Of a stretch of DNA of 51,845 nt, positions 14,903-51,365 are shown one piece after another. Source of the DNA: an uncultured Candidatus Saccharibacteria bacterium (GTDB lineage Bacteria > Patescibacteriota > Minisyncoccia > Sungbacterales > HO2-52-23); contig CAYHZE010000001.1 of NCBI GenBank assembly GCA_964361015.1, positions 1-51,845 of the forward strand, given 5' to 3'. A program made the position numbers and the translations under genes. The notes beneath the pieces are model-generated. The model had not been told where the DNA came from. It did no database searches and saw only the letters and a program-made list of their open reading frames with translations. The stretch's first letter is position 1. Every line of letters starts with the position of its first letter.

Positions 14903-16006
14903 ATGGAAACAAACAATTTGCAGAAATTTTTTCAAAATAAACCGGTGCTTATTACCGGGCACACGGGTTTTAAGGGCGCGTGGCTCGCGCAAGTTTTGAT
15001 AAACTGGGGTGCCCGCGTGACGGGAATCGCGCTTGAGCCCCATGTATCGCCCAATCTTTATGATATGCTCGGACTTGCGCGCCGCATGAACACTTATATT
15101 CTTGATATTCGTAATTTTTCCGAATTGCAGGCGGTTTTTGAAAAAGAAAAACCGGAAATTGTCATTCATCTTGCCGCGCAGGCGATTGTGCGCGAGAGTT
15201 ATCGCGATCCTTTGCGCACGATTGCGGTTAACACATTGGGGACAGGTCATGTACTTGAAGCAATACGCCATTGCGCGTCAGTCAAGTCCGCAGTGTTAAT
15301 CACCACTGATAAAGTATATGAGAATAAAGAATGGTGGTATAGCTATCGCGAAAATGATAGACTCGGCGGACAGGATCCTTACAGCGCAAGCAAGTCTTCG
15401 GCTGATATCATCATCGCGTCTTACACAAAATCTTTTTTTCATCCGAAAAAATTTAAAAAAGATCACCATACATTAATTGCAACGGCTCGCGCCGGAAATG
15501 TGATCGGAGGAGGAGACTGGTCCAAAGATCGGCTTGTTCCGGACTTTGTACGCGCGGTATTTGAGGATAACATGTCTTTGCGCATGCGCAATCCTCACTC
15601 AATTCGACCATGGGAATATGTGCTTGAGCCTGTCAGCGGTTATCTTCTTCTTGCTAAGAAATTATATGAAGGCGATACGCGCTGTGTTGGCGCATGGAAT
15701 TTTGGGCCGCATGATGAAAGTTTTATTACCGCTGAGGAAATGATACAAAAAGCCATTGTGATTTCAGGTCGCGGGGAATATCGCGTTGAGTCGGATGACT
15801 TTGCGCATGAATCGGCATTGCTTAAGCTTGATATTGCAAAAGCAAAAACCGTGCTTGGATGGAAGCCAATTTTAAATGTGGAGCAAAATCTGCGTTTCAC
15901 CCTTGACTGGTATAAAACATACTATGACAAAAAAGAGGATATTGTCCGCTTTACCGATTCGCAGATTGATTTATTTTTTCGGGAGTTTTCGGCTCGTGTG
16001 GCATAA
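14903..16006 (+). CDS. rfbG: CDP-glucose 4,6-dehydratase
   Basis: FQNKPVLITGHTGFKGAWL N-terminus and overall RfbG-like layout; directly follows rfbF. Confidence 0.9.
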   Translation: METNNLQKFFQNKPVLITGHTGFKGAWLAQVLINWGARVTGIALEPHVSPNLYDMLGLARRMNTYILDIRNFSELQAVFEKEKPEIVIHLAAQAIVRESYRDPLRTIAVNTLGTGHVLEAIRHCASVKSAVLITTDKVYENKEWWYSYRENDRLGGQDPYSASKSSADIIIASYTKSFFHPKKFKKDHHTLIATARAGNVIGGGDWSKDRLVPDFVRAVFEDNMSLRMRNPHSIRPWEYVLEPVSGYLLLAKKLYEGDTRCVGAWNFGPHDESFITAEEMIQKAIVISGRGEYRVESDDFAHESALLKLDIAKAKTVLGWKPILNVEQNLRFTLDWYKTYYDKKEDIVRFTDSQIDLFFREFSARVA

Positions 16007-16015
16007 AAATATATT

Positions 16016-16175
16016 AGACCTGACTTTGTAATTATTTTTGTGCTGCAATTTCCAGATTTCGGCTGCAGCGAAGTAAAAATTTTTCAACATATACGCTGTA
16101 TATGCTTCAAAATTTTTTTAGCACCCGCTCGAAATCTGAAAATTTTGCTACAAAAATAATTACAAAGTCAGGTCT
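16016..16175 (-). repeat. Family B palindromic element, copy B2
   Basis: Perfect 26-bp arms agacctgactttgtaattatttttgt / acaaaaataattacaaagtcaggtct; conserved core; TA on both flanks. Confidence 0.92.
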
Positions 16176-16180
16176 ATTTT

Positions 16181-16618
16181 ATGATTAATGGTGTTGGCAT
16201 ATATCCGCGTCAGGTGTTTTGCAACGATCAAGGCTGTGTATATACAATGATGCAAAGGAGTGATGAATGTTTTGAACGCTTTGGCGAGGTTTATTTTTCT
16301 TATATAAAGTCGGATGTGATCAAGGGATGGAATCTTCATGCGCGCGCAGATATGAATATGGCATGCATAACAGGCACTATACAATTAGTCCTCTATGACC
16401 GAAGAGCTGATCATGCAAGCGCAGGCGCAATTCAGGAGATAATAATAGGCGAGCGCGACTATCGTCTTGTGCACATTCCTCACGGTGTCGCATTCTCATG
16501 GAAAGCGCTGGACGGACAGGGAGCGCTTATCGCAAATTGCGCAACGTTGCTCCATGACCCGAAAGAACTTACCAAGATAAGCATTACAAGTAGCGAGATA
16601 CCTTATCAATGGAAATAA
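16181..16618 (+). CDS. RmlC-like cupin (NDP-4-keto-6-deoxyhexose epimerase/isomerase-like)
   Basis: 145 aa; KGWNLHARADMNMACITGTIQLVLYDRR resembles the RmlC RGLHxQ...DVxVD region; sits among sugar-nucleotide genes. Confidence 0.55.
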   Translation: MINGVGIYPRQVFCNDQGCVYTMMQRSDECFERFGEVYFSYIKSDVIKGWNLHARADMNMACITGTIQLVLYDRRADHASAGAIQEIIIGERDYRLVHIPHGVAFSWKALDGQGALIANCATLLHDPKELTKISITSSEIPYQWK

Positions 16619-17499
16619 ACACAACGCACAAACTTGTGAGTATTGGCTTACCCACCTATTGCGGGGAAAAACGCATCGCGCGCGCGCTTGATTCATTGTG
16701 CGCGCAAACATATCCTCATATTGAAATTATTGTGTCGGATAACGCTTCAGATGACGAAACACCCACTGTATGTAAAGCATACGCAGACCGTGATTCCCGC
16801 ATTCGTTTTTTTCAACAAAAAGAGAACATAGGCAGAATGGATAATTTTCTTTTCGTGCTCTCTCGGTCCCGCGGCGATTATTTTATGTGGGCGGGCGATG
16901 ATGATACATGGGATGCGCGGTTTGTAGAAATCCTTGTTGCGGGTCTTGATTCCCATCCTGAACATGGAGTTGCGCTAAGCTCTTTTCGCCGTGAACGCGG
17001 CGATAATGCTCTATCGGAAATAATATCATTTGCCGGCATACATCAGATAACGGGTCTGTCCTATCAAGAGGTGTTTAAGAAAATGGTCATGCACGAGCCG
17101 ATTCATATTTTTTTTAGCGGCGTATGGCGGAGAGATATTGTTCAAAAACTTTTCAGCAGATCCCTTCCCGCAACAATCGCATGGGATCGGATCATGATGG
17201 CGGAAGCCGCGCTCATGACACATTTCTATTCGGCTGATCCTGTGTTATTTTATAAATATGCCAATCCCATTTCAATAAAATCGCGGCACGCAAAAGATCC
17301 GGAACACAATCGCAATAGAGCGCTGTTTGCATACGATAAGTATTTGATTGCGTTGCTTGCGCGCATAATCACCTCTCCCCTTATCCCTGCGAGGCGCAAG
17401 TTACTCGTGCCGATCCATTGGCTCGGAGCAATATGGATGCGGCGCAAAAGAATTATCGGCGTAACGCTTCGTGATATGAGGCGTCTGATGGCGGGGTAA
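16609..17499 (+). CDS. Glycosyltransferase family 2
   Basis: VSIGLPTYCGEKRIARALDSLCAQTYPHIEIIVSDNASDDET. Confidence 0.8.
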   Translation: MEINTTHKLVSIGLPTYCGEKRIARALDSLCAQTYPHIEIIVSDNASDDETPTVCKAYADRDSRIRFFQQKENIGRMDNFLFVLSRSRGDYFMWAGDDDTWDARFVEILVAGLDSHPEHGVALSSFRRERGDNALSEIISFAGIHQITGLSYQEVFKKMVMHEPIHIFFSGVWRRDIVQKLFSRSLPATIAWDRIMMAEAALMTHFYSADPVLFYKYANPISIKSRHAKDPEHNRNRALFAYDKYLIALLARIITSPLIPARRKLLVPIHWLGAIWMRRKRIIGVTLRDMRRLMAG

Positions 17500-18622: not shown

Positions 18623-18782
18623 GGACTTACGCATGTGATTCCTATTCCCCTCCTGATGCAGGAGGGGTTAGGGGAGGTATAGGTGAGGGATAAAACTTGC
18701 AGTATGTCATTCTTGCCCTCACTCCTTACCACCCCTAACCCCTCCTATCCTAGGAGGGGAATAAGGAGTCAAATGTGTAACG
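18623..18782 (+). repeat. Family A palindromic element, copy A2
   Basis: Same architecture as A1, but both flanking hairpins are of the cccctcct/aggagggg type. Confidence 0.9.
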
Positions 18783-20025: not shown

Positions 20026-20180
20026 GGACTTTTCCGTTTAATTCCTCCCCCTAGCATAGGGGGAGGTAAGGAGGGATATGGGTGAGGCGCATAAACTTTT
20101 TCTTTAGGTTCTTGCCCTCACCTATACCACCCCTAACCCCTCCTCCATAGGAGGGGAATAAGAGTGAAATGCGTAAGTCT
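20026..20180 (+). repeat. Family A palindromic element, copy A3
   Basis: ggacttttccg ... ccctcacctataccacccctaacccctcctccataggagggg ... aaatgcgtaagtct. Confidence 0.9.
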
Positions 20181-24921: not shown

Positions 24922-25665
24922 ATGGATCTTAGCATTATTATCCCCGCCTATAATGAAGAACATCGTTTGCCCCCGACTCTTGCGCGGGTACTTGATTTTT
25001 TGCACGCCCATTATCAAGGCACATTTGAAATTATCGTGATAGACGATGGAAGCAAAGATGGGACAGAGCAATCTGTCCGTGCATTTGTTATTCAATATCC
25101 TTCCGTGCATCTTATATCATTGGAACGAAATCAGGGAAGAGGGGTTGCGGTACGCCAAGGCGTTGATATGGCAAAGGGAGATTTAATCCTTGAGATGGAC
25201 GCGGATGGCAGTGTGGACATGGAGGCGGCTCAACGATTTGTTGCATATATGGATACGCACCCGGATATTGATATGCTCATTGGTAGCCGCAACATCAAGG
25301 GCGCGCGCATTGCCAAGCACCAACCCTTGTTGCGCGTTATTCTTGGTAATATATTTCTTGCGTTGGCGTGGCTGATGTTTGGATGGGATTTTCGGGATCG
25401 AGTAAATGGATTTAAAATGTTTCGTAAAAAAACGGCACATGATATGTTTGTCCATCAACATGAGACCGGATTTCTTGCAGAAGCGGAGCTTGTCGTTATT
25501 GCGGAACACAGAGGTTGGAAATATGAATTGCTTCCTGTCATATGGACCGATAACCGCGATTCGCGCATACGGCCGTTGAGAGAATCATGGCGTTCATTCT
25601 GGGGCATGTTTGCCATTCTCAAACGCGTAAGGCAAGGCGTATACAATAGACCTGTCCCCTTATAA
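24922..25665 (+). CDS. GT2 polyprenyl-phosphate glycosyltransferase (DPM1/GtrB/Alg5-like)
   Basis: LSIIIPAYNEEHRLPPTL...IIVIDDGSKDGT...EMDADGS. The last 6 codons and the stop codon lie inside repeat B3. Confidence 0.8.
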   Translation: MDLSIIIPAYNEEHRLPPTLARVLDFLHAHYQGTFEIIVIDDGSKDGTEQSVRAFVIQYPSVHLISLERNQGRGVAVRQGVDMAKGDLILEMDADGSVDMEAAQRFVAYMDTHPDIDMLIGSRNIKGARIAKHQPLLRVILGNIFLALAWLMFGWDFRDRVNGFKMFRKKTAHDMFVHQHETGFLAEAELVVIAEHRGWKYELLPVIWTDNRDSRIRPLRESWRSFWGMFAILKRVRQGVYNRPVPL

Positions 25666-25805
25666 TTTTCGTAGCGAAATTTTCAGATTTCGAGCGGGTG
25701 CTAGGAAAAATTTTGAAGCATATACAGCGTATATGTTGAAAAATTTTTACAAAGCCGTAGCCGAAATCTGGAAATTGTAGCAGAAAGGTTATAAGGGGAC
25801 AGGTG
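25648..25805 (+). repeat. Family B palindromic element, copy B3
   Basis: Arms agacctgtccccttataa / ttataaggggacaggtg; the core is nearly identical to B5. Confidence 0.92.
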
Positions 25806-25843
25806 TAATAAAACTTCCTCATCTTTGAAGATGTTCTAGTGAT

Positions 25844-26281: not shown

Positions 26282-26300
26282 TCCTATGTTATTCATTATT

Positions 26301-26460
26301 AGATCTGACTTTGTAAATATTTTCTACTGCAATTTCCAGATTTCGGCTGCGCCTTTGCAAAAATTATTCAACATATACTCCGTATATGCTTCATAATTTT
26401 TGCTTCGGCTCGCCAGAAATCTGAAAATTTCGCTACGAAAATATTTACAAAGTCAGGTCT
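26301..26460 (-). repeat. Family B palindromic element, copy B4
   Basis: Arms agatctgactttgtaaatattttc / gaaaatatttacaaagtcaggtct; conserved core; TA flanks. Confidence 0.92.
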
Positions 26461-26480
26461 ATTAAGAAAAGGGTCGGATT

Positions 26481-31332: not shown

Positions 31333-31606
31333 TTTTTGCATTTAATTCCTCCCCTAGCATAGGGGAGGCGAGGTGTGGGTATAAAGTGATGGATAAAACT
31401 TGCGGTCTGTGGTTCCTGCCCTCACCCATACCACCCCTAACCCCTCCTGCATCAGGAGGGGAAAGATGAACTATCCTGTTCCTCCCCTAGCATAGGGGAG
31501 GTTAGGAGGGGTATAGGTGAGGATTGGAACATGGAGTTTGTGCCCTCACCCATACCACCCCTAATCACTCCTTTATCAGGAGGGGAATAAGAGATGCAGA
31601 CGTAAA
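31333..31606 (+). repeat. Family A palindromic elements, tandem dimer (A4a + A4b)
   Basis: Two complete hairpin1 / long-stem / hairpin2 units head to tail, with unit 2 starting near 31478; the outer termini are degenerate. Confidence 0.85.
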
Positions 31607-34166: not shown

Positions 34167-34928
34167 ATGTTGTCCAAGAGAGTTATGTACAAACATTCAA
34201 TTATTCTTGCTTTAATTCCCGCCCGTGGTGGCTCAAAAGGAATTCCGAAAAAAAATATAACATTATTGGGCGGCAAACCATTGATTGTGTGGAGCATTGA
34301 GGCGGCAAAAAAATCGCGGTTTATTGATCGCATAATTGTCTCGACTGACAGCGAAGAAATTGCCGAAGTTGCGCGAGCGGTAGGAACAGAAGTGCCATTT
34401 TTGCGTCCCGCGGAAATTGCCCAAGACCTGACGCCAGATACCCCTGTATTTGAACATGCGCTTGCGTGGCTTAAAGAGCATGATGGTTTTGTTCCCGAAT
34501 TAATCGTACACTTGCGTCCGACCGGACCGCTTCGTACAGTGGAGGAAATTGATGAAGCAATAGAAATGCTTGCCGCCGATCCAAATGCGGACAGCGTGCG
34601 CTCCGTGGAAGAACCGCCCAAGCCCCCGTTTAAGATGTGGCAACCGGCGGGAAATTATATAAAACCATTTGCCGAGCTCCATGGTATGAAAGACTTTCAT
34701 ACCATGCCGCGTCAAATGTTGCCGAAAGTTTATCAGACTACGGCGGATATCGGTATTATGCGTTACCGCACGGTCATGGAAAAAAAGTCAGTGATTGGTG
34801 ACTGTGTAATTCCGTATTTTTTGAAACGTTCGACTATTGATATAGATCATTTGATTGATTTTGAGATTGGAGAATTGTTGTTGAAAAACTTGATATCAGA
34901 AAAAAATAAGAGTAGTATTATAACATGA
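34167..34928 (+). CDS. neuA: CMP-nonulosonate (N-acylneuraminate) cytidylyltransferase
   Basis: LALIPARGGSKGIPKKNI..LGGKPLIVWSIEAA is canonical for the CMP-NeuAc/Pse/Leg synthetase family. Confidence 0.8.
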   Translation: MLSKRVMYKHSIILALIPARGGSKGIPKKNITLLGGKPLIVWSIEAAKKSRFIDRIIVSTDSEEIAEVARAVGTEVPFLRPAEIAQDLTPDTPVFEHALAWLKEHDGFVPELIVHLRPTGPLRTVEEIDEAIEMLAADPNADSVRSVEEPPKPPFKMWQPAGNYIKPFAELHGMKDFHTMPRQMLPKVYQTTADIGIMRYRTVMEKKSVIGDCVIPYFLKRSTIDIDHLIDFEIGELLLKNLISEKNKSSIIT

Positions 34929-36074: not shown

Positions 36075-36143
36075 ATAGGCTCCTTCAACCCAATTCCCCA
36101 TCTGAAGTAGGACATTTGGTAATTATAGATTATTATCTATATA

Positions 36144-37436
36144 ATGTCAAGTTTTTCAAGTAATCATTTTATCGTCACCAATTTCGCCTATGGCACAGGT
36201 CCTTATTTGCGTACCACGGATTTGGCAATTGCGTTTAATGATGAGCTAGAAATTGCGGGATACAAACGCATGGGGATTATTGTGCCATGGGTGTATGGGG
36301 AGAAACAAAAGCGCGTGATGCTTGAAGAATTTAGCGAGCATGAAAAAAAATATCCGGGCGAAATTATGCTTGATAAAAAATTGGGAGAATTACTGTGCAG
36401 TATTTTTTATGCGGATTCAACATATGAAGAAGCGCTTAGCGCGTGGGTGAAGAATTATCGCGAGGTGTCACTGCACGCATATCAGCATCTTTCGTTTGAT
36501 GTTGAAGTGGAGACGTTTGGCGGCGAAAAGAGAATAATAGACGGGACAAAAATTGCGGTTGAATTAAGCCGATCGCCGAGATTGCGGTATAATGTTGCGC
36601 CGTCGTATGTTACGTCATTTGCCAATGTTGCCGATATTTTAGAACGCGCACAAGCAATCCCGGAAATCGCGGTTGATCATGAGCTTCTTAAACAGGGAGT
36701 AAAGGCGGCGGAGTGGGTGGAGAGAAATCAGAAAATGCGTTGCGTGGCATGGCCTGCGACATTTGGGTACTTATGTCCGAATTTCTCCGACTCTTGTCAT
36801 TCCCGCGAAAGCGGGAATCCAGACTATAACAAAGAAAAATTTGGATTCTCGCGACCTAAGTCGGGAATGACAGAAATGATAGGTGATATGAGTTGCGTTG
36901 ATAAAGGACGCTACTATGATGAAATTTTTGTTCCGCCGATCGCGCCCCCGCCGCAACCAAATAATGCAGAAATCGAAAAAGGAATTTTTGTAACCATCAC
37001 CGGTATTCCGGGATTAGAGCGATTGTATCAAGACGCTAAGCGGCTTGGGTTGAAATTATATAGTAATGATACGGATGCCGTGCCAGAAAGTATATACATG
37101 TCGCCGCATGTAATTCCAAATAAAAATATCATATGCCAGTTTGCCCGCGCGGGTTGGAGTTCAATTTGGATTTCAATGATAAGCGGGACGCCGCTTGTGG
37201 TGCCGGATTTTGATTCTCACGATGATCCAGAAATTTATTTTAATAACCGATCGGTAGAAGAGTTAGGTCTTGGCATTGTCTATCGCGGCCAACCGTTTGA
37301 AAAAATTCTTGAGCAAGTGCCGCGCATTAAAAAATCATCTGAGAATGTAAAAAAACAGATTCTTGATAAGTGGGGCACGATTGATGGAAATCGGCATTGC
37401 GCGAAGATGTTTGTTGATGATTTTTTAAAAAAATAA
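36144..37436 (+). CDS. GT-B-fold protein with a GT28/PseG-like C-terminal domain, carrying an in-frame repeat insertion
   Basis: C-terminal FARAGWSSIWISMISGTPLVVPDFDSHDDPEIYFNNRSVEELGLG resembles the MurG/PseG donor-binding region; residues CHSRESGNPDYNKEKFGFSRPKSGMT are encoded by a family-D palindrome. Confidence 0.5.
   Translation: MSSFSSNHFIVTNFAYGTGPYLRTTDLAIAFNDELEIAGYKRMGIIVPWVYGEKQKRVMLEEFSEHEKKYPGEIMLDKKLGELLCSIFYADSTYEEALSAWVKNYREVSLHAYQHLSFDVEVETFGGEKRIIDGTKIAVELSRSPRLRYNVAPSYVTSFANVADILERAQAIPEIAVDHELLKQGVKAAEWVERNQKMRCVAWPATFGYLCPNFSDSCHSRESGNPDYNKEKFGFSRPKSGMTEMIGDMSCVDKGRYYDEIFVPPIAPPPQPNNAEIEKGIFVTITGIPGLERLYQDAKRLGLKLYSNDTDAVPESIYMSPHVIPNKNIICQFARAGWSSIWISMISGTPLVVPDFDSHDDPEIYFNNRSVEELGLGIVYRGQPFEKILEQVPRIKKSSENVKKQILDKWGTIDGNRHCAKMFVDDFLKK
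36795..36872. repeat. Family D core inserted in frame within a CDS
   Basis: tgtcattcccgcgaaagcgggaatccag...ttggattctcgcgacctaagtcgggaatgaca; 78 bp = 26 codons; collinear with the core of D-b (46317..46396). Confidence 0.8.
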
Positions 37437-37549: not shown

Positions 37550-38521
37550 ATGCCAAAAATCATTGTAGAAGTCTGTCAAAATCATAACGGCGACCGTTCT
37601 GTCTTAAAAGAAATGATTCATGCCGCGAAAGAAAACGGGGCGGATATTATCAAAGGGCAAATTATTTTTTCCGAAGATCTCACGCCACGCGAACGGTTTG
37701 ACGAGGGGCATGAGGAAACAAACGGCGTGCGCAAGACCATCAAGCGTCCGTATAGAGCGGAGCGCGAACGGCTCGCGAGTTTGGATTTGATGGAAGACGA
37801 TTATCGTTTTTTTGTTGATGAGGTGAATCGTGTCGGTGCGATTCCCATGATGACAGTATTTTCGCGCAATCGCGTACCATTGGCGGCAGGACTTCCATGG
37901 CAGGGCAAGACATTTGTAAAAGTCGCAAGTTATGATTGCGCGAGCGTGCCGCTTGTGTCTGACTTGGCACATCATTTTGACACATTGATTGTTTCTACCG
38001 GCGCTACATTTGACGAGGAGATTAAAAAAACTGCCGCTATGCTGAAAGAAAAAAATAAAAAGTTTGCGCTCCTGCATTGTGTCACGAGTTATCCCAACAC
38101 ACTTAGCATGGCAAACTTGAATCGCATGAATTGGTTGCGTCAGTTTACGCAAGAAGTGGGGTGGTCAGATCACACGCTCGTTGTTCGTGACGGCATTAAG
38201 GCGGCAAAAGTTGCCCTTATGCTTGGCGCAGATTATATTGAGCGGCACTTTACGATTCTTACTGCCGACAAAACCAAGGACGGACCCATATCAATTACTC
38301 CTGCATTACTTCGCGAGCTTGCTGATTTTGCAAAATTGCCGAAAGAAGAACAGAAAGTGATCGTGGCAAAAGAAATTCCGGAATGGGAAATCATGCTCGG
38401 TTCTTCACAGCGCGAGATGACGCATACGGAAATGCTTAACCGCGATTATTATCGCGGACGGTTTGCAAGTTTGGTGAACAATAATGCATGGGTGTATAAT
38501 TGGGAAGAAAAACAAATATAG
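37550..38521 (+). CDS. neuB: NeuB-family nonulosonic acid (sialic/pseudaminic/legionaminic) synthase
   Basis: IIVEVCQNHNGDRSVLKEMIHAAKENGADIIKGQ ... LLHCVTSYPN ... VGWSDHT ... ADYIERHFT. Confidence 0.8.
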   Translation: MPKIIVEVCQNHNGDRSVLKEMIHAAKENGADIIKGQIIFSEDLTPRERFDEGHEETNGVRKTIKRPYRAERERLASLDLMEDDYRFFVDEVNRVGAIPMMTVFSRNRVPLAAGLPWQGKTFVKVASYDCASVPLVSDLAHHFDTLIVSTGATFDEEIKKTAAMLKEKNKKFALLHCVTSYPNTLSMANLNRMNWLRQFTQEVGWSDHTLVVRDGIKAAKVALMLGADYIERHFTILTADKTKDGPISITPALLRELADFAKLPKEEQKVIVAKEIPEWEIMLGSSQREMTHTEMLNRDYYRGRFASLVNNNAWVYNWEEKQI

Positions 38522-38547: not shown

Positions 38548-38697
38548 GACTTACGCATTTTGGTTCCTCCCCTATTCTAGGGGAGGTTAGGAGGGGTATA
38601 GGTGAGGGATAGAACCTACGCTATATTGTTTTTTTCCTCACCCATACCTCCCCTAACCCCTCCTATACTAGGAGGGGAAAAGGAGATGCGTAAGTCC
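38548..38697 (+). repeat. Family A palindromic element, copy A5 (best preserved)
   Basis: Perfect termini gacttacgcat / atgcgtaagtc enclosing hairpin1, the long stem and hairpin2; 150 bp. Confidence 0.92.
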
Positions 38698-43373: not shown

Positions 43374-44138
43374 ATGTATATGAAAAAATATCATACAGCA
43401 TTTAGCGGACTTCATTCGGATATTGAAAAGAATTTACAGCAGGGTTTGCTTAGTCTTTTAAAAGAATCTCCAATCCCTGATACGGAATTCATTGCCAATC
43501 TGCCTCTTTTTTTGCGGCGCCAGGATATAGCGCGGATTTTATTTATGGATTACTTATATAGGGAAATGATCGGAGTCCATGGGGTGATCGCCGAATTCGG
43601 TATTAGGTGGGGGAGAAATCTTCCCCTTTTGGAATCACTGCGCGGTATTTACGAGCCTTACAATTATAATCGTAAAATTTTAGGATTTGATACATTTCAA
43701 GGATTTCCCAATACTTCGGAAAAAGACGGAAAAGCAAAAATTATCGCTACCGGGACGCTTGCGGTGAGTGACGGGTATGATGCTTATTTAGGGCGCATTA
43801 TGGATCATCATGAAAGCGGGAATCCGGTTTCTCATATTAAAAAATATGAGCTGGTAAAAGGAGACGCAAGTATAAGCATAAAAAAATATCTTAAGGATCA
43901 CCCGGAGACCATCTTTGCGTTCGCATATTTTGATTTTGATTTATATGAACCGACAAAAAACGTGCTGAAAGCAATTAAGGGACATCTGACCAAAGGGAGC
44001 GTGATTGCATTTGACGAAGTAAATCATAAAGATTTTCCCGGCGAGACGCTCGCATTAAAAGAAGTCTTGGGCCTTGATACTTATCATTTGTGCCATAATC
44101 CTTATGGATCGGCGCAATCATATTTGGTTATTGAATAG
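43374..44138 (+). CDS. TylF/MycF-like (macrocin-O-methyltransferase family) methyltransferase
   Basis: VIAEFGIRWGRNL...GFDTFQGFP...FAYFDFDLYEPTK...GSVIAFDE; the stop TAG overlaps the first bases of repeat B5. Confidence 0.6.
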   Translation: MYMKKYHTAFSGLHSDIEKNLQQGLLSLLKESPIPDTEFIANLPLFLRRQDIARILFMDYLYREMIGVHGVIAEFGIRWGRNLPLLESLRGIYEPYNYNRKILGFDTFQGFPNTSEKDGKAKIIATGTLAVSDGYDAYLGRIMDHHESGNPVSHIKKYELVKGDASISIKKYLKDHPETIFAFAYFDFDLYEPTKNVLKAIKGHLTKGSVIAFDEVNHKDFPGETLALKEVLGLDTYHLCHNPYGSAQSYLVIE

Positions 44139-44295
44139 ACCTACTGCGTAATTATTTTTGTAGCGAAATTTTCAGATTTCGAGCGAGGCGCAGGAAAAAT
44201 TTTGAAGCATATACAGCGTATATGTTGAAAAATTTTTACAAAGCCGTAGCCGAAATCTGGAAATTGCAGCACAAAAATAATTACGCAGTAGGTCT
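44137..44295 (+). repeat. Family B palindromic element, copy B5
   Basis: Perfect 25-bp arms agacctactgcgtaattatttttgt / acaaaaataattacgcagtaggtct; TA flanks. Confidence 0.92.
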
Positions 44296-44306
44296 ATTAA
44301 CATCAA

Positions 44307-45060: not shown

Positions 45061-45210
45061 GAACTTTCGTGTTTGATACCTCTCCTATTCTAGGGGAGGT
45101 TGGGAGGGGTATGAGTGAGGGATATCAACTTTTTCTTTAGGTTCTATCCCTGACCCATACCACCCCTAACCCCTCCTAAGATAGGAGGGGAAAGGGAAAT
45201 ACGTAAGTCC
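45061..45210 (+). repeat. Family A palindromic element, copy A6
   Basis: Degenerate left terminus gaactttcgtg; right terminus atacgtaagtcc; conserved internal stems. Confidence 0.88.
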
Positions 45211-46281: not shown

Positions 46282-46415
46282 AGAGACCATTACAAAACTC
46301 TTTTTCATCTCCCGTTTGTCATTCCAAGCACTTGCGGGAATCTAGGTTCTCTCCTGAATTTAACGGGTCTGGATTCCCGCTTACGCGGGAATGACAGAGT
46401 TTTGTAATGGTCTCT
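46282..46415. mobile_element. Family D MITE-like element, copy D-b
   Basis: 20-bp TIR agagaccattacaaaactct / agagttttgtaatggtctct enclosing a gtcattcc...gggaatgac double-hairpin core. Confidence 0.85.
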
Positions 46416-49527: not shown

Positions 49528-49658
49528 GAGACTGTAGAAGAATGCCCAGAAGTTGTCATTGCGAGGAGCAGTAGTGACGAAGCAATCTCTCTCTCGGCGT
49601 TATAGATTGCTTCGCTACGCTCGCAATGACACCGTGGGAGATATTCTTCTACAGTCTC
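49528..49658. mobile_element. Family D MITE-like element, copy D-c
   Basis: TIR gagactgtagaagaat / attcttctacagtctc; core gtcattgcgagg...gcaatctctctctcgg...agattgcttcg...ctcgcaatgac; flanked by AATAT on both sides. Confidence 0.88.
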
Positions 49659-49665
49659 AATATGA

Positions 49666-49830
49666 GGACTTACGCATTTAGTTTTAGTTTTAGTTCCTCC
49701 CCTAGAATAGGGGAGGGTAGGAGGGGTATGTGTGTGGGGGATATCAATTTTTTCTTTAGGTTTTGCCCTCACCTTCTATCACCCCTAACCTCGCTCCTAT
49801 TTTATGAAGAGAAAAAGAAGTCAAGCGCAT
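49666..49830 (+). repeat. Family A palindromic element, copy A7 (right half degenerate)
   Basis: ggacttacgcat + hairpin1 + long stem; hairpin2 and the right terminus are eroded; starts 8 bp after D-c. Confidence 0.8.
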
Positions 49831-50311: not shown

Positions 50312-50443
50312 AGGACCGTAGAAAAATATCTCCCATGATGTCATTGCGAAGCGTTGCGCAAGTAATCTATAGCCTTAAGATAGAGATTGCTTCGTCGGAA
50401 GCCTTCTCGCAATGACAGTGTTCGGGTATTGTTCTACGGTCTC
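50312..50443. mobile_element. Family D MITE-like element, copy D-d
   Basis: TIR aggaccgtagaaaaata / ggtattgttctacggtctc; core gtcattgcgaag...agattgcttcg...ctcgcaatgac; flanked by AAATT on both sides. Confidence 0.85.
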
Positions 50444-51184: not shown

Positions 51185-51190
51185 TTTTTA

Positions 51191-51352
51191 AGAGCCTGTT
51201 CATAATCTTTTTTCCAGAGCCATTTTGTGATATTTTGAGCGAAAAACCTGAAGACCGACGAAACGTAGCGGTGCCTACGTTGAGGAGGTCTGAAGGTTTT
51301 GCAGCCAAAATAGCACAAAATGGAGTCGGGAAAAAGATTATGAACAGGCTCT
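51191..51352 (+). repeat. Family C palindromic element, copy C2
   Basis: Same orientation and length as 1..162; perfect outer arms agagcctgttcataatctttttt / aaaaagattatgaacaggctct. Confidence 0.92.
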
Positions 51353-51365
51353 AAGAATAAAAAAG

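Follow-up and report, generated by a model that had tools for sequence, protein, structure and literature searches.

In-frame palindromic repeats, or "selfish DNA in proteins", are a classic observation from Rickettsia. A comparable case is provided by a 51,845-nucleotide stretch of DNA (contig CAYHZE010000001.1 of assembly GCA_964361015.1, from an uncultured groundwater Patescibacterium; hereafter the window), in which a 78-bp palindrome at 36795..36872 (+) lies inside the open reading frame (ORF) 36144..37436 (+), encoding a 430-residue protein of predicted GT-B fold. An initial annotation of this DNA offered three readings: that the element had been exapted as a protein linker, that the gene was a recently disrupted but still open pseudogene, or that the hairpin modulated translation midway through the gene. 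From comparison with orthologues, structure models and related repeats, the locus is very probably a tolerated protein-coding repeat resembling the RPEs of Rickettsia, in which a doublet of NTS/CGTC-1 repeat units sits in the connector between the two domains of a GT-B enzyme that would remain functional. The membership of the palindrome in a named, published family (CGTC-1 REP / dRS3 / NTS / RPE-6), and the repeated hits at the same site, were both missed in the initial annotation.

An in-frame palindrome in an interdomain connector

The core palindrome, TGTCATTCCCGCGAAAGCGGGAATCCAGACTATAACAAAGAAAAATTTGGATTCTCGCGACCTAAGTCGGGAATGACA, is exactly 26 codons long, contains no stop codon and is translated as CHSRESGNPDYNKEKFGFSRPKSGMT (residues 218-243 of the ORF); its sequence, coordinates and translation as initially annotated all check out. 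It is composed of an intact hairpin unit at 36795..36822 (+), a 19-nt centre at 36823-36841, and a variant second unit at 36842..36872 (-). The intact unit reads TGTC-ATTCCCGC-GAAA-GCGGGAAT-CCAG, that is, a tag, an 8-bp stem, a 4-nt loop and a CCA tail. The variant unit, with the reverse complement TGTCATTCCCGACTTAGGTCGCGAGAATCCA, is 4 nt longer than the canonical form and pairs with the left unit to give one long hairpin, which folds with -37.2 kcal/mol as RNA (z = -6.0, 0 of 200 shuffles being as good) and with -17.8 kcal/mol as DNA (z = -5.1). Absence of stops in the core is unremarkable, because no stop interrupts five of the six frames of the canonical unit (encoding CHSRESGNP, VIPAKAGIQ, SFPRKRES, LDSRFRGND and WIPAFAGMT); the copy in the gene is open in two of six. 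Predicted peptides crossing the insert would include ESGNPDYNK and SGMTEMIGDMSCVDK, and the arms themselves encode HSRESGN and GFSRPKSGMT. Neither a terminator-like tail nor a strong promoter-like site was present at the element, and no Rfam family reached its gathering score in the window, the best score at the element being FtrB with 25.7 bits against a cut-off of 66.

An alignment of 117 homologues, in which the connector was measured from ATF to RY, showed that the 26 codons are the core of a larger insert. The connector has 7-10 residues in 104 of the homologues, 13 or 18 in two, and 27-48 in 11, with that of the window protein having 48 (residues 208-255, 36765..36908, +); the insert is thus about 40 codons, and the 26 codons given initially hold for the core, not for the whole. 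Relative to orthologues with an 8-residue connector, the extra segment spans 36774..36893 (+), about 120 bp or 40 codons with approximate boundaries, in which the 78-nt core has about 21 nt on either side, rich in pyrimidines on the left and in purines on the right. The alignment with insert-free orthologues proposed in the initial annotation could accordingly be made, and empty sites were also seen by codon-level comparison in the DNA of loci L001 and L009, which encode the orthologues P0009 and P0035. Had the same 26 residues been general among orthologues, the likeness to the repeat could have been coincidental, or the repeat derived from the gene; the sole orthologue sharing them is a close relative, the partial protein P0074 (contig L130), which inherited the same insertion.

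The position of the insert was located on predicted structures. An AlphaFold2 model of the window protein, with the 117-sequence alignment as input, has a pLDDT of 90.1 and a pTM of 0.88, and low confidence (pLDDT <50) is confined to residues 219-252; the N domain ends its last strand (198-202) ahead of this stretch, and the C domain begins with a strand at 260-263 beyond it. The model of the insert-less orthologue P0009 (pLDDT 94.9) has an identical order of secondary structure and a short connector that is modelled confidently. The two models bear out the proposal that the insert lies in the linker between two Rossmann-like domains.

Part of the flanking sequence probably belongs to the element, since a CTCC(C)G motif located 2-6 nt 5' of TGTCAT is common to the gene copy, to a second, intergenic copy in the window (46317..46396), and to an intergenic element at locus L131. 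The longer right arm was considered as a frame-restoring repair, as a canonical arm would give an in-frame TGA. This was rejected: an identical 31-nt arm is found in the unrelated L131 element and in the P0074 gene, so that the variant arm pre-exists in the family.

Identity of the repeat unit

By its sequence, the palindrome consists of two CGTC-1-type REP hairpin units in inverted arrangement, a small non-autonomous repeat of an already known element class, and the unit class is the same as that of Neisseria dRS3/NTS, the "Ssn-related motif" (SRM), and RPE-6 of Rickettsia conorii. NTS was defined as CGTCATTCCCGCGMAVGCGGGAATCYRG and includes the dRS3 repeat (Chenal et al. 2025, PMC11893778). 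Of the 28 positions of this consensus, the left arm shares 27, the single mismatch being the first base (T for C), and one mismatch to the consensus was permitted by its authors (PMC11893778). The degenerate SRM pattern has exactly two matches in the window, at 36795-36822 (+) and 46369-46396 (-), compared with about 0.02 expected by chance in second-order Markov simulations. CGTC-1 was described as a CGTC tag (TGTC or CCTC in many copies), an 8-bp stem starting with AT, a loop of 4 nt, and a few unpaired tail nucleotides approximating CCA (Di Nocera et al. 2013, PMC3733652); each of these parts is found in the gene copy, with the tag TGTC at 36795-36798 and ATTCCCGC, GAAA, GCGGGAAT and CCA following at 36799-36821. 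The same survey equated CGTC-1 with dRS3 in Neisseria and with RPE-6 in R. conorii, and showed that the units occur mainly as dimers, with in-frame intragenic dimers coding for 20-30 residues in several species (PMC3733652).

Both copies in the window have the inverted-doublet arrangement, as do most of 140 copies from other genomes, where the usual form is a 58-120-bp inverted doublet with a variable centre. In a scan of one genome per species, the exact 27-mer was present in more than 120 contigs/species among the matches listed, and the hosts among these matches include Proteobacteria, Chloroflexi, Nitrospirae, Planctomycetes, Bacteroidetes, Rickettsia, and several groups of the candidate phyla radiation (CPR).

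The intergenic copy (46317..46396, no strand assigned) has its intact unit at 46369-46396 on the minus strand. The initial annotation had taken the cores of the two copies to be collinear and had placed both in a "family D"; their relatedness holds, and the collinearity does not, as the two cores match best in inverted orientation (29 of 30 nt) and have unrelated centres. In the gene copy the left arm is the intact unit, in the intergenic copy the right arm, and the remaining arm of each doublet is a longer variant. Only these two copies of the family are in the window; further "family D" seeds at 16790, 32533, 43812 and 47262 proved to be chance partial matches and not elements.

Selection on the host gene and age of the insertion

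Pairwise comparison of the window gene with its nearest relatives by the Nei-Gojobori method gave a ratio of nonsynonymous to synonymous divergence (dN/dS) of 0.10-0.11, with 0.10-0.12 for the N domain and 0.09-0.10 for the C domain, at a dS of about 0.75-0.8, and all 37 of the 37 family-invariant positions are kept in the window protein. The relative P0074 has the same insert in the same frame, with flanks and an unusual right arm that it also shares with the window gene, and its DNA elsewhere is 75-95% identical to the window, i.e., about 20% diverged. The insertion consequently predates the split of these two lineages and has been in frame in both since then. An identical 430-residue allele occurs in three further independent groundwater assemblies from Hainich, with 2-4 single-nucleotide polymorphisms per 4.3 kb and none in the element, and the insert is thus no assembly artefact. 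Because of the dN/dS of about 0.1, the insert common to a diverged relative, and the recurrence of the allele, the host gene reads as one under purifying selection and not as a fresh pseudogene.

Constraint within the insert was evaluated in a single comparison, that of the window with P0074. In the two hairpin units (19 codons), 54 of 57 nt are identical, with 1.0 synonymous difference over 13.7 synonymous sites, where about 6 would be expected at the background proportion of synonymous differences (Poisson p of about 0.016). This background, taken from the C domain, has a proportion of synonymous differences (pS) of 0.44 and of nonsynonymous differences (pN) of 0.064. The centre of the insert has 11 of 21 nt identical and a pN of 0.54, and the flanks have 20 of 30 (left) and 25 of 36 (right) identical with a pN of about 0.27. 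The arms would therefore be held at the level of DNA or RNA, as their synonymous positions are conserved too, and the insert peptide appears essentially unconstrained, as for a passive disordered spacer. Arm conservation is also family-wide, with the variant arm identical over 31 nt in the L131 element and the canonical arm identical across phyla.

Repeated occupation of the same codon

Orthologues of the window protein revealed that the connector has been occupied more than once. A second element family, a different CGTC/GTCAT-tagged palindrome, is present in nine close orthologues (P0002-6, 8, 10, 12 and 16) and in the partial protein P0080, where it is located after the third connector residue, has the sequence CGTCATGCTGAGCGAAGCGAAGCATC...GATTCTTCGCTATCGCTCAGGATGAC, and leaves the peptide signature RHAERSEAS...AQDD; arms of this type were also seen on an unrelated Nitrospirae contig. 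In the clade of P0001, P0002 and P0003 (80% bootstrap), the window protein carries the NTS type, in contrast to the second type found in its sisters. Deeper nodes of the tree are weakly supported, and the second type may represent one old insertion with losses or several insertions, both of which fit the tree. An NTS-type doublet is found at the same place in P0022, which is 60% identical to the window protein, in another frame and with the peptide VIPAKAGIH...LDPHLRGDD. The site is empty in P0035, the sister of P0022 (85% bootstrap, and 100% for the clade with P0033), and the P0022 insertion is independent of that in the window gene. Insert length among carrying orthologues ranges from 19 to 40 residues, and the closely related orthologues P0007 and P0009 have no insert.

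In-frame insertion of such doublets is general, since genes elsewhere carry them too. The tgt gene of a Parcubacteria metagenome-assembled genome (MAG), which encodes a queuine tRNA-ribosyltransferase, has an in-frame NTS doublet (locus L017, 6522-7505, -; VIPAKAGIQ...LDSRLRGND), with its Pfam TGT match (E 1.5e-54) split into two stretches, and a radical-SAM gene of a Nitrospirota MAG (L089, 3-1217, +) has an in-frame doublet with an NTS unit encoding LDSRFRGND.

Within the P0002 insert (L006, 1180-1290), an extra partial arm, ATCCTTCGATATTGCTCAGG, lies inside the left arm and suggests a nested insertion or an internal duplication. Taken with the nested layout of the intergenic copy described below, it suggests that these palindromes attract further elements, as was reported for the CGTC family (PMC3733652).

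Mechanism and competing explanations

The sequence of events that best accommodates these findings would begin with insertion of the element into DNA coding for a short connector between two Rossmann-like domains. It would have persisted as the inserted DNA was a multiple of three and open in the frame used, and as the connector was tolerant of added length. The enzyme would stay functional with a disordered spacer of about 40 residues, the inserted peptide having no role of its own, and the arms would be kept by a force acting on the nucleic acid, most likely recognition by the cognate machinery of the family. A candidate for this machinery is a Ssn-type nuclease, by analogy with SsnA acting on NTS in Neisseria. 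The same codon might be hit recurrently either as the sole structurally permissive place in the protein or through resident palindromes that draw in further elements.

Several points weigh against a tolerated, functional repeat of this family. A very recent loss of function may be compatible with pairwise dN/dS, and the protein is known here from its gene sequence alone. Conservation of the arms at the nucleotide level was measured in one sequence pair, in which divergence is uneven along the gene. Just two copies of the family are visible in the 51.8 kb of the window. The cognate gene of this family is a small GIY-YIG one of the Ssn type (cd10448), often with the motif on its flanks; a motif scan of the window, and tblastn against it with the NTS-adjacent GIY-YIG protein of locus L058 (see below), found no such gene, and the link of the window element to Ssn would be one of motif sequence identity. 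Among the other loci examined, no ssn/GIY-YIG gene was found in those from CPR, and one was present in two non-CPR loci only. At the window copy, at P0022 and at the inserts of the other family alike, neither a target-site duplication nor another insertion scar could be recognized. The 14 flanking codons, when compared with the element type of the sister orthologues, gave weak scores against shuffles (z <= 2.3), and they aligned best with the empty-site connector of P0009 (z 2.6).

A fresh pseudogene, inactivated by the insertion and left with a frame that is open only by chance and for a short time, might be expected from a 120-bp insertion in the middle of a gene whose product has no Pfam domain above threshold. 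The absence of a Pfam match is family-wide, however, and includes insert-less members; with purifying selection on both sides of the insert, every invariant residue present, a confident two-domain model, and an insert that a diverged relative shares in frame, the disrupted gene of the initial annotation is extremely improbable. Recruitment of the peptide as a functional longer linker, e.g., for altered domain closure, partner binding or localization, with protein-level selection to keep it, is in turn distinctly unlikely. It would account for an insert that stays in frame across a lineage split, for long inserts that last in about 11 orthologues diverged at a dS of 0.7-1.2, and for the conservation of HSRESGN and GFSRPKSGMT between the window protein and P0074. 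Yet the insert is predicted to be disordered, its centre and flanks vary nearly freely relative to the C-domain background, both its length and its element type differ among orthologues, and P0007 and P0009 manage without it; the conservation of the arms, covering synonymous positions as it does, points to DNA or RNA and not to the peptide. The exapted linker of the initial annotation thus finds weak support, and the insert looks tolerated, not recruited.

A function of the nucleic acid in the host gene itself, either as a site of recombination or single-stranded DNA cleavage that allows exchange of GT-B domains, or as an mRNA hairpin that pauses ribosomes between the domains, as in the translational reading of the initial annotation, is unlikely. 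In its favour, the arms have changed less than the synonymous background would predict, in a palindrome whose centre has drifted, and the RNA hairpin is strong (-37 kcal/mol). NTS is bound and cut by the small GIY-YIG nuclease SsnA, only as single-stranded DNA, and limits recombination tracts in Neisseria, with NTS-like SRMs being spread across bacteria (PMC11893778). A mosaic boundary was also seen at the insert when contig L130 (P0074) was compared with L006 (P0002), which are from two wells in one aquifer: downstream of the insert, with the first 24 nt excluded, 6 of 869 nt differ (about 99.3% identity), upstream 53 of 64 are identical (about 83%), and the element types differ. Both are short metagenome contigs at 4-5x coverage, however, and the mosaic could be a chimeric assembly at the repeat; it could equally be genuine recombination, which would be of interest in view of the part that NTS and Ssn play in Neisseria transformation. 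Trees of the N and C domains have no well-supported discordance, the window contains no ssn gene, and the element has no terminator-like tail; conservation of the arms is a trait of the whole family, found in its intergenic copies and in many phyla as well, and does not have to stem from any role in the host gene. A more specific version holds that connector doublets are preferred points of recombination or cleavage, by way of an Ssn-like nuclease that would work on single strands during uptake or replication, and that the acceptor-binding and donor-binding halves of the GT-B enzyme could be exchanged in this way between co-occurring strains of Patescibacteria. The abrupt change between L130 and L006 exactly at the insert is the only direct hint of such exchange, with arm conservation besides, and we would give the idea little credence; if true, the repeat would be a natural joint for domain shuffling and not mere junk.

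The host enzyme and its locus

Homologues of the host protein number 370, and all named ones are from Patescibacteria/CPR, with Sungbacteria, Paceibacterota, Taylorbacteria and Giovannonibacteria among them; a typical member of the family has about 385-390 residues. In database searches the family would be an uncharacterized, Patescibacteria-specific one that lacks a Pfam model. No Pfam model was above threshold for the host protein, and no NCBIfam model matched it. The GT28/PseG-like C-terminal half proposed initially was not sustained as a sequence family, Glyco_tran_28_C having just 15 bits (E 0.027) against a cut-off of 22. A sequence search of the Protein Data Bank (PDB) with the family profile gave nothing at E<=0.1. 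By structure, the GT-B fold of the initial annotation was upheld: Foldseek against the PDB with the predicted model gave 185 matches at E<=0.001, headed by GT1-type GT-B glycosyltransferases (lowest E 5e-10, TM scores of 0.5-0.59). These enzymes (UrdGT2, OleD, CalG3 and plant UGTs) have the same two Rossmann domains, interdomain connector, and C-terminal helix crossing back, but the host protein has no significant sequence similarity to them and the TM scores reach only about 0.5-0.59.

The host gene lies between a CMP-sugar synthetase-like gene and neuB. The former, a CTP_transf_3 gene at 34167..34928 (+), is upstream and was recognized from Pfam PF02348 on the identical gene in L133-L135; the latter, encoding a NeuB-family nonulosonic-acid synthase at 37550..38521 (+), is directly downstream (Pfam NeuB, E 1.5e-42). 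The order of the locus is a nucleotidyltransferase, a methyltransferase, a UDP-glucose/GDP-mannose dehydrogenase, the CMP-sugar synthetase-like gene, the host gene, NeuB, a HAD hydrolase, a glycerophosphotransferase-like gene, and a polysaccharide deacetylase, and this synteny is kept among homologous contigs. Given the conserved NeuB and CMP-synthetase locus, the host protein is predicted to be a GT-B-fold nucleotide-sugar enzyme of the nonulosonic-acid pathway, and either a transferase or a PseG/NeuC-like hydrolase is conceivable. A promoter-like site at 36116-36145 (TTGGTA-18-TATAAT, 10 of 12 positions) overlaps the start of the annotated gene, ending on the initial bases of its ATG (36144), and the true start or the layout of the transcript may therefore differ from the mechanical ORF call.

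Relation to known repeat systems

Compared with CGTC-1, dRS3, NTS and SRM elsewhere, the unit in the window is nearly identical (27/28), with the same tag, stem, GAAA loop, CCA tail and inverted doublets of variable centre, in a class that is spread over many phyla; it differs in having a Patescibacteria (CPR) host, a group absent from the list of the 2013 survey (PMC3733652), in the two copies seen over 51.8 kb against the hundreds per genome of Neisseria, in the absence of an ssn gene from the window, and in the longer variant arm of each doublet. The Rickettsia RPEs (RPE-1 and the CGTC-type RPE-4 and RPE-6; Ogata et al. 2000/2002), as far as they are described in the account of Di Nocera et al. 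(PMC3733652), share with the present case an in-frame palindrome in a functional gene, 20-40 extra residues, orthologues that lack the segment, a permissive surface or loop position, and purifying selection on the host gene. Within the same account, their host is an obligate intracellular alphaproteobacterium, in contrast to the free-living or episymbiotic groundwater CPR bacterium here, and the present connector differs in that different lineages have two or more element families, read in two frames, at the same codon. REPINs and other GTAG-tagged REPs, which are mobilized by RAYT, likewise form inverted doublets of short hairpins that give a longer hairpin, are non-autonomous, and are in some cases intragenic. 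They differ in their tag, which is GTAG and not TGTC/CGTC; CGTC repeats are without a RAYT partner (PMC3733652), and their proposed partner is a GIY-YIG single-stranded DNA nuclease, with transposition only presumed.

The phenomenon itself was already known, and no new kind of system is involved. What is new is the host clade, the Patescibacteria, and an interdomain connector colonized repeatedly by two element families in two frames, which serves as a clean natural test of the length of additional disordered sequence that the linker of a GT-B enzyme can bear. For annotation, HSRESGNP, VIPAKAGIQ, LDSRLRGND and AFAGMT within proteins should be read as translated repeat units and not as features of a domain. 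In a Gammaproteobacteria MAG (L058, 833-1187, -), a 109-residue GIY-YIG protein (Pfam E 8.5e-14) starts right after an exact NTS unit, the same layout as the NTS-ssn arrangement of the literature.

Other repeats in the window

The intergenic copy of the doublet is enclosed by an outer 19-bp inverted repeat at 46282..46415 (no strand assigned), with arms at 46282-46300 and 46397-46415, that forms a hairpin of about 130 nt. Together with the copy it folds as DNA with -33.8 kcal/mol (z = -9.4), and it is flanked by two ORFs on the same strand. CGTC-1 dimers of Halothiobacillus also lie within outer palindromes (PMC3733652), and the layout of a dimer within a palindrome is the same in the two cases.

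The repeat content of the window is unusually high for a small genome. A separate palindromic family of about 125 nt, with GGGGAGG...CCCCTAACCCCTCC motifs, has about eight copies that apparently occupy intergenic gaps (2338-2467, 18641-18771, 20040-20169, 31344-31473, 31478-31597, 38560-38689, 45073-45202 and 49693-49790). Another, of about 145-170 nt, has about seven copies (1-171, 1191-1334, 16004-16187, 25640-25811, 26296-26464, 44129-44300 and 51186-51361), one of them at either end of the window; the end copies (1-171 and 51191-51361) are 93% identical, and as they are not identical the ends do not represent a circular overlap. A third GTCAT-tagged family of the window comprises two intergenic palindromes of 78-79 bp at 49554-49631 and 50339-50417, which have a tag related to that of the doublets and different stems (TGTCATTGCGAG...CTCGCAATGACA).

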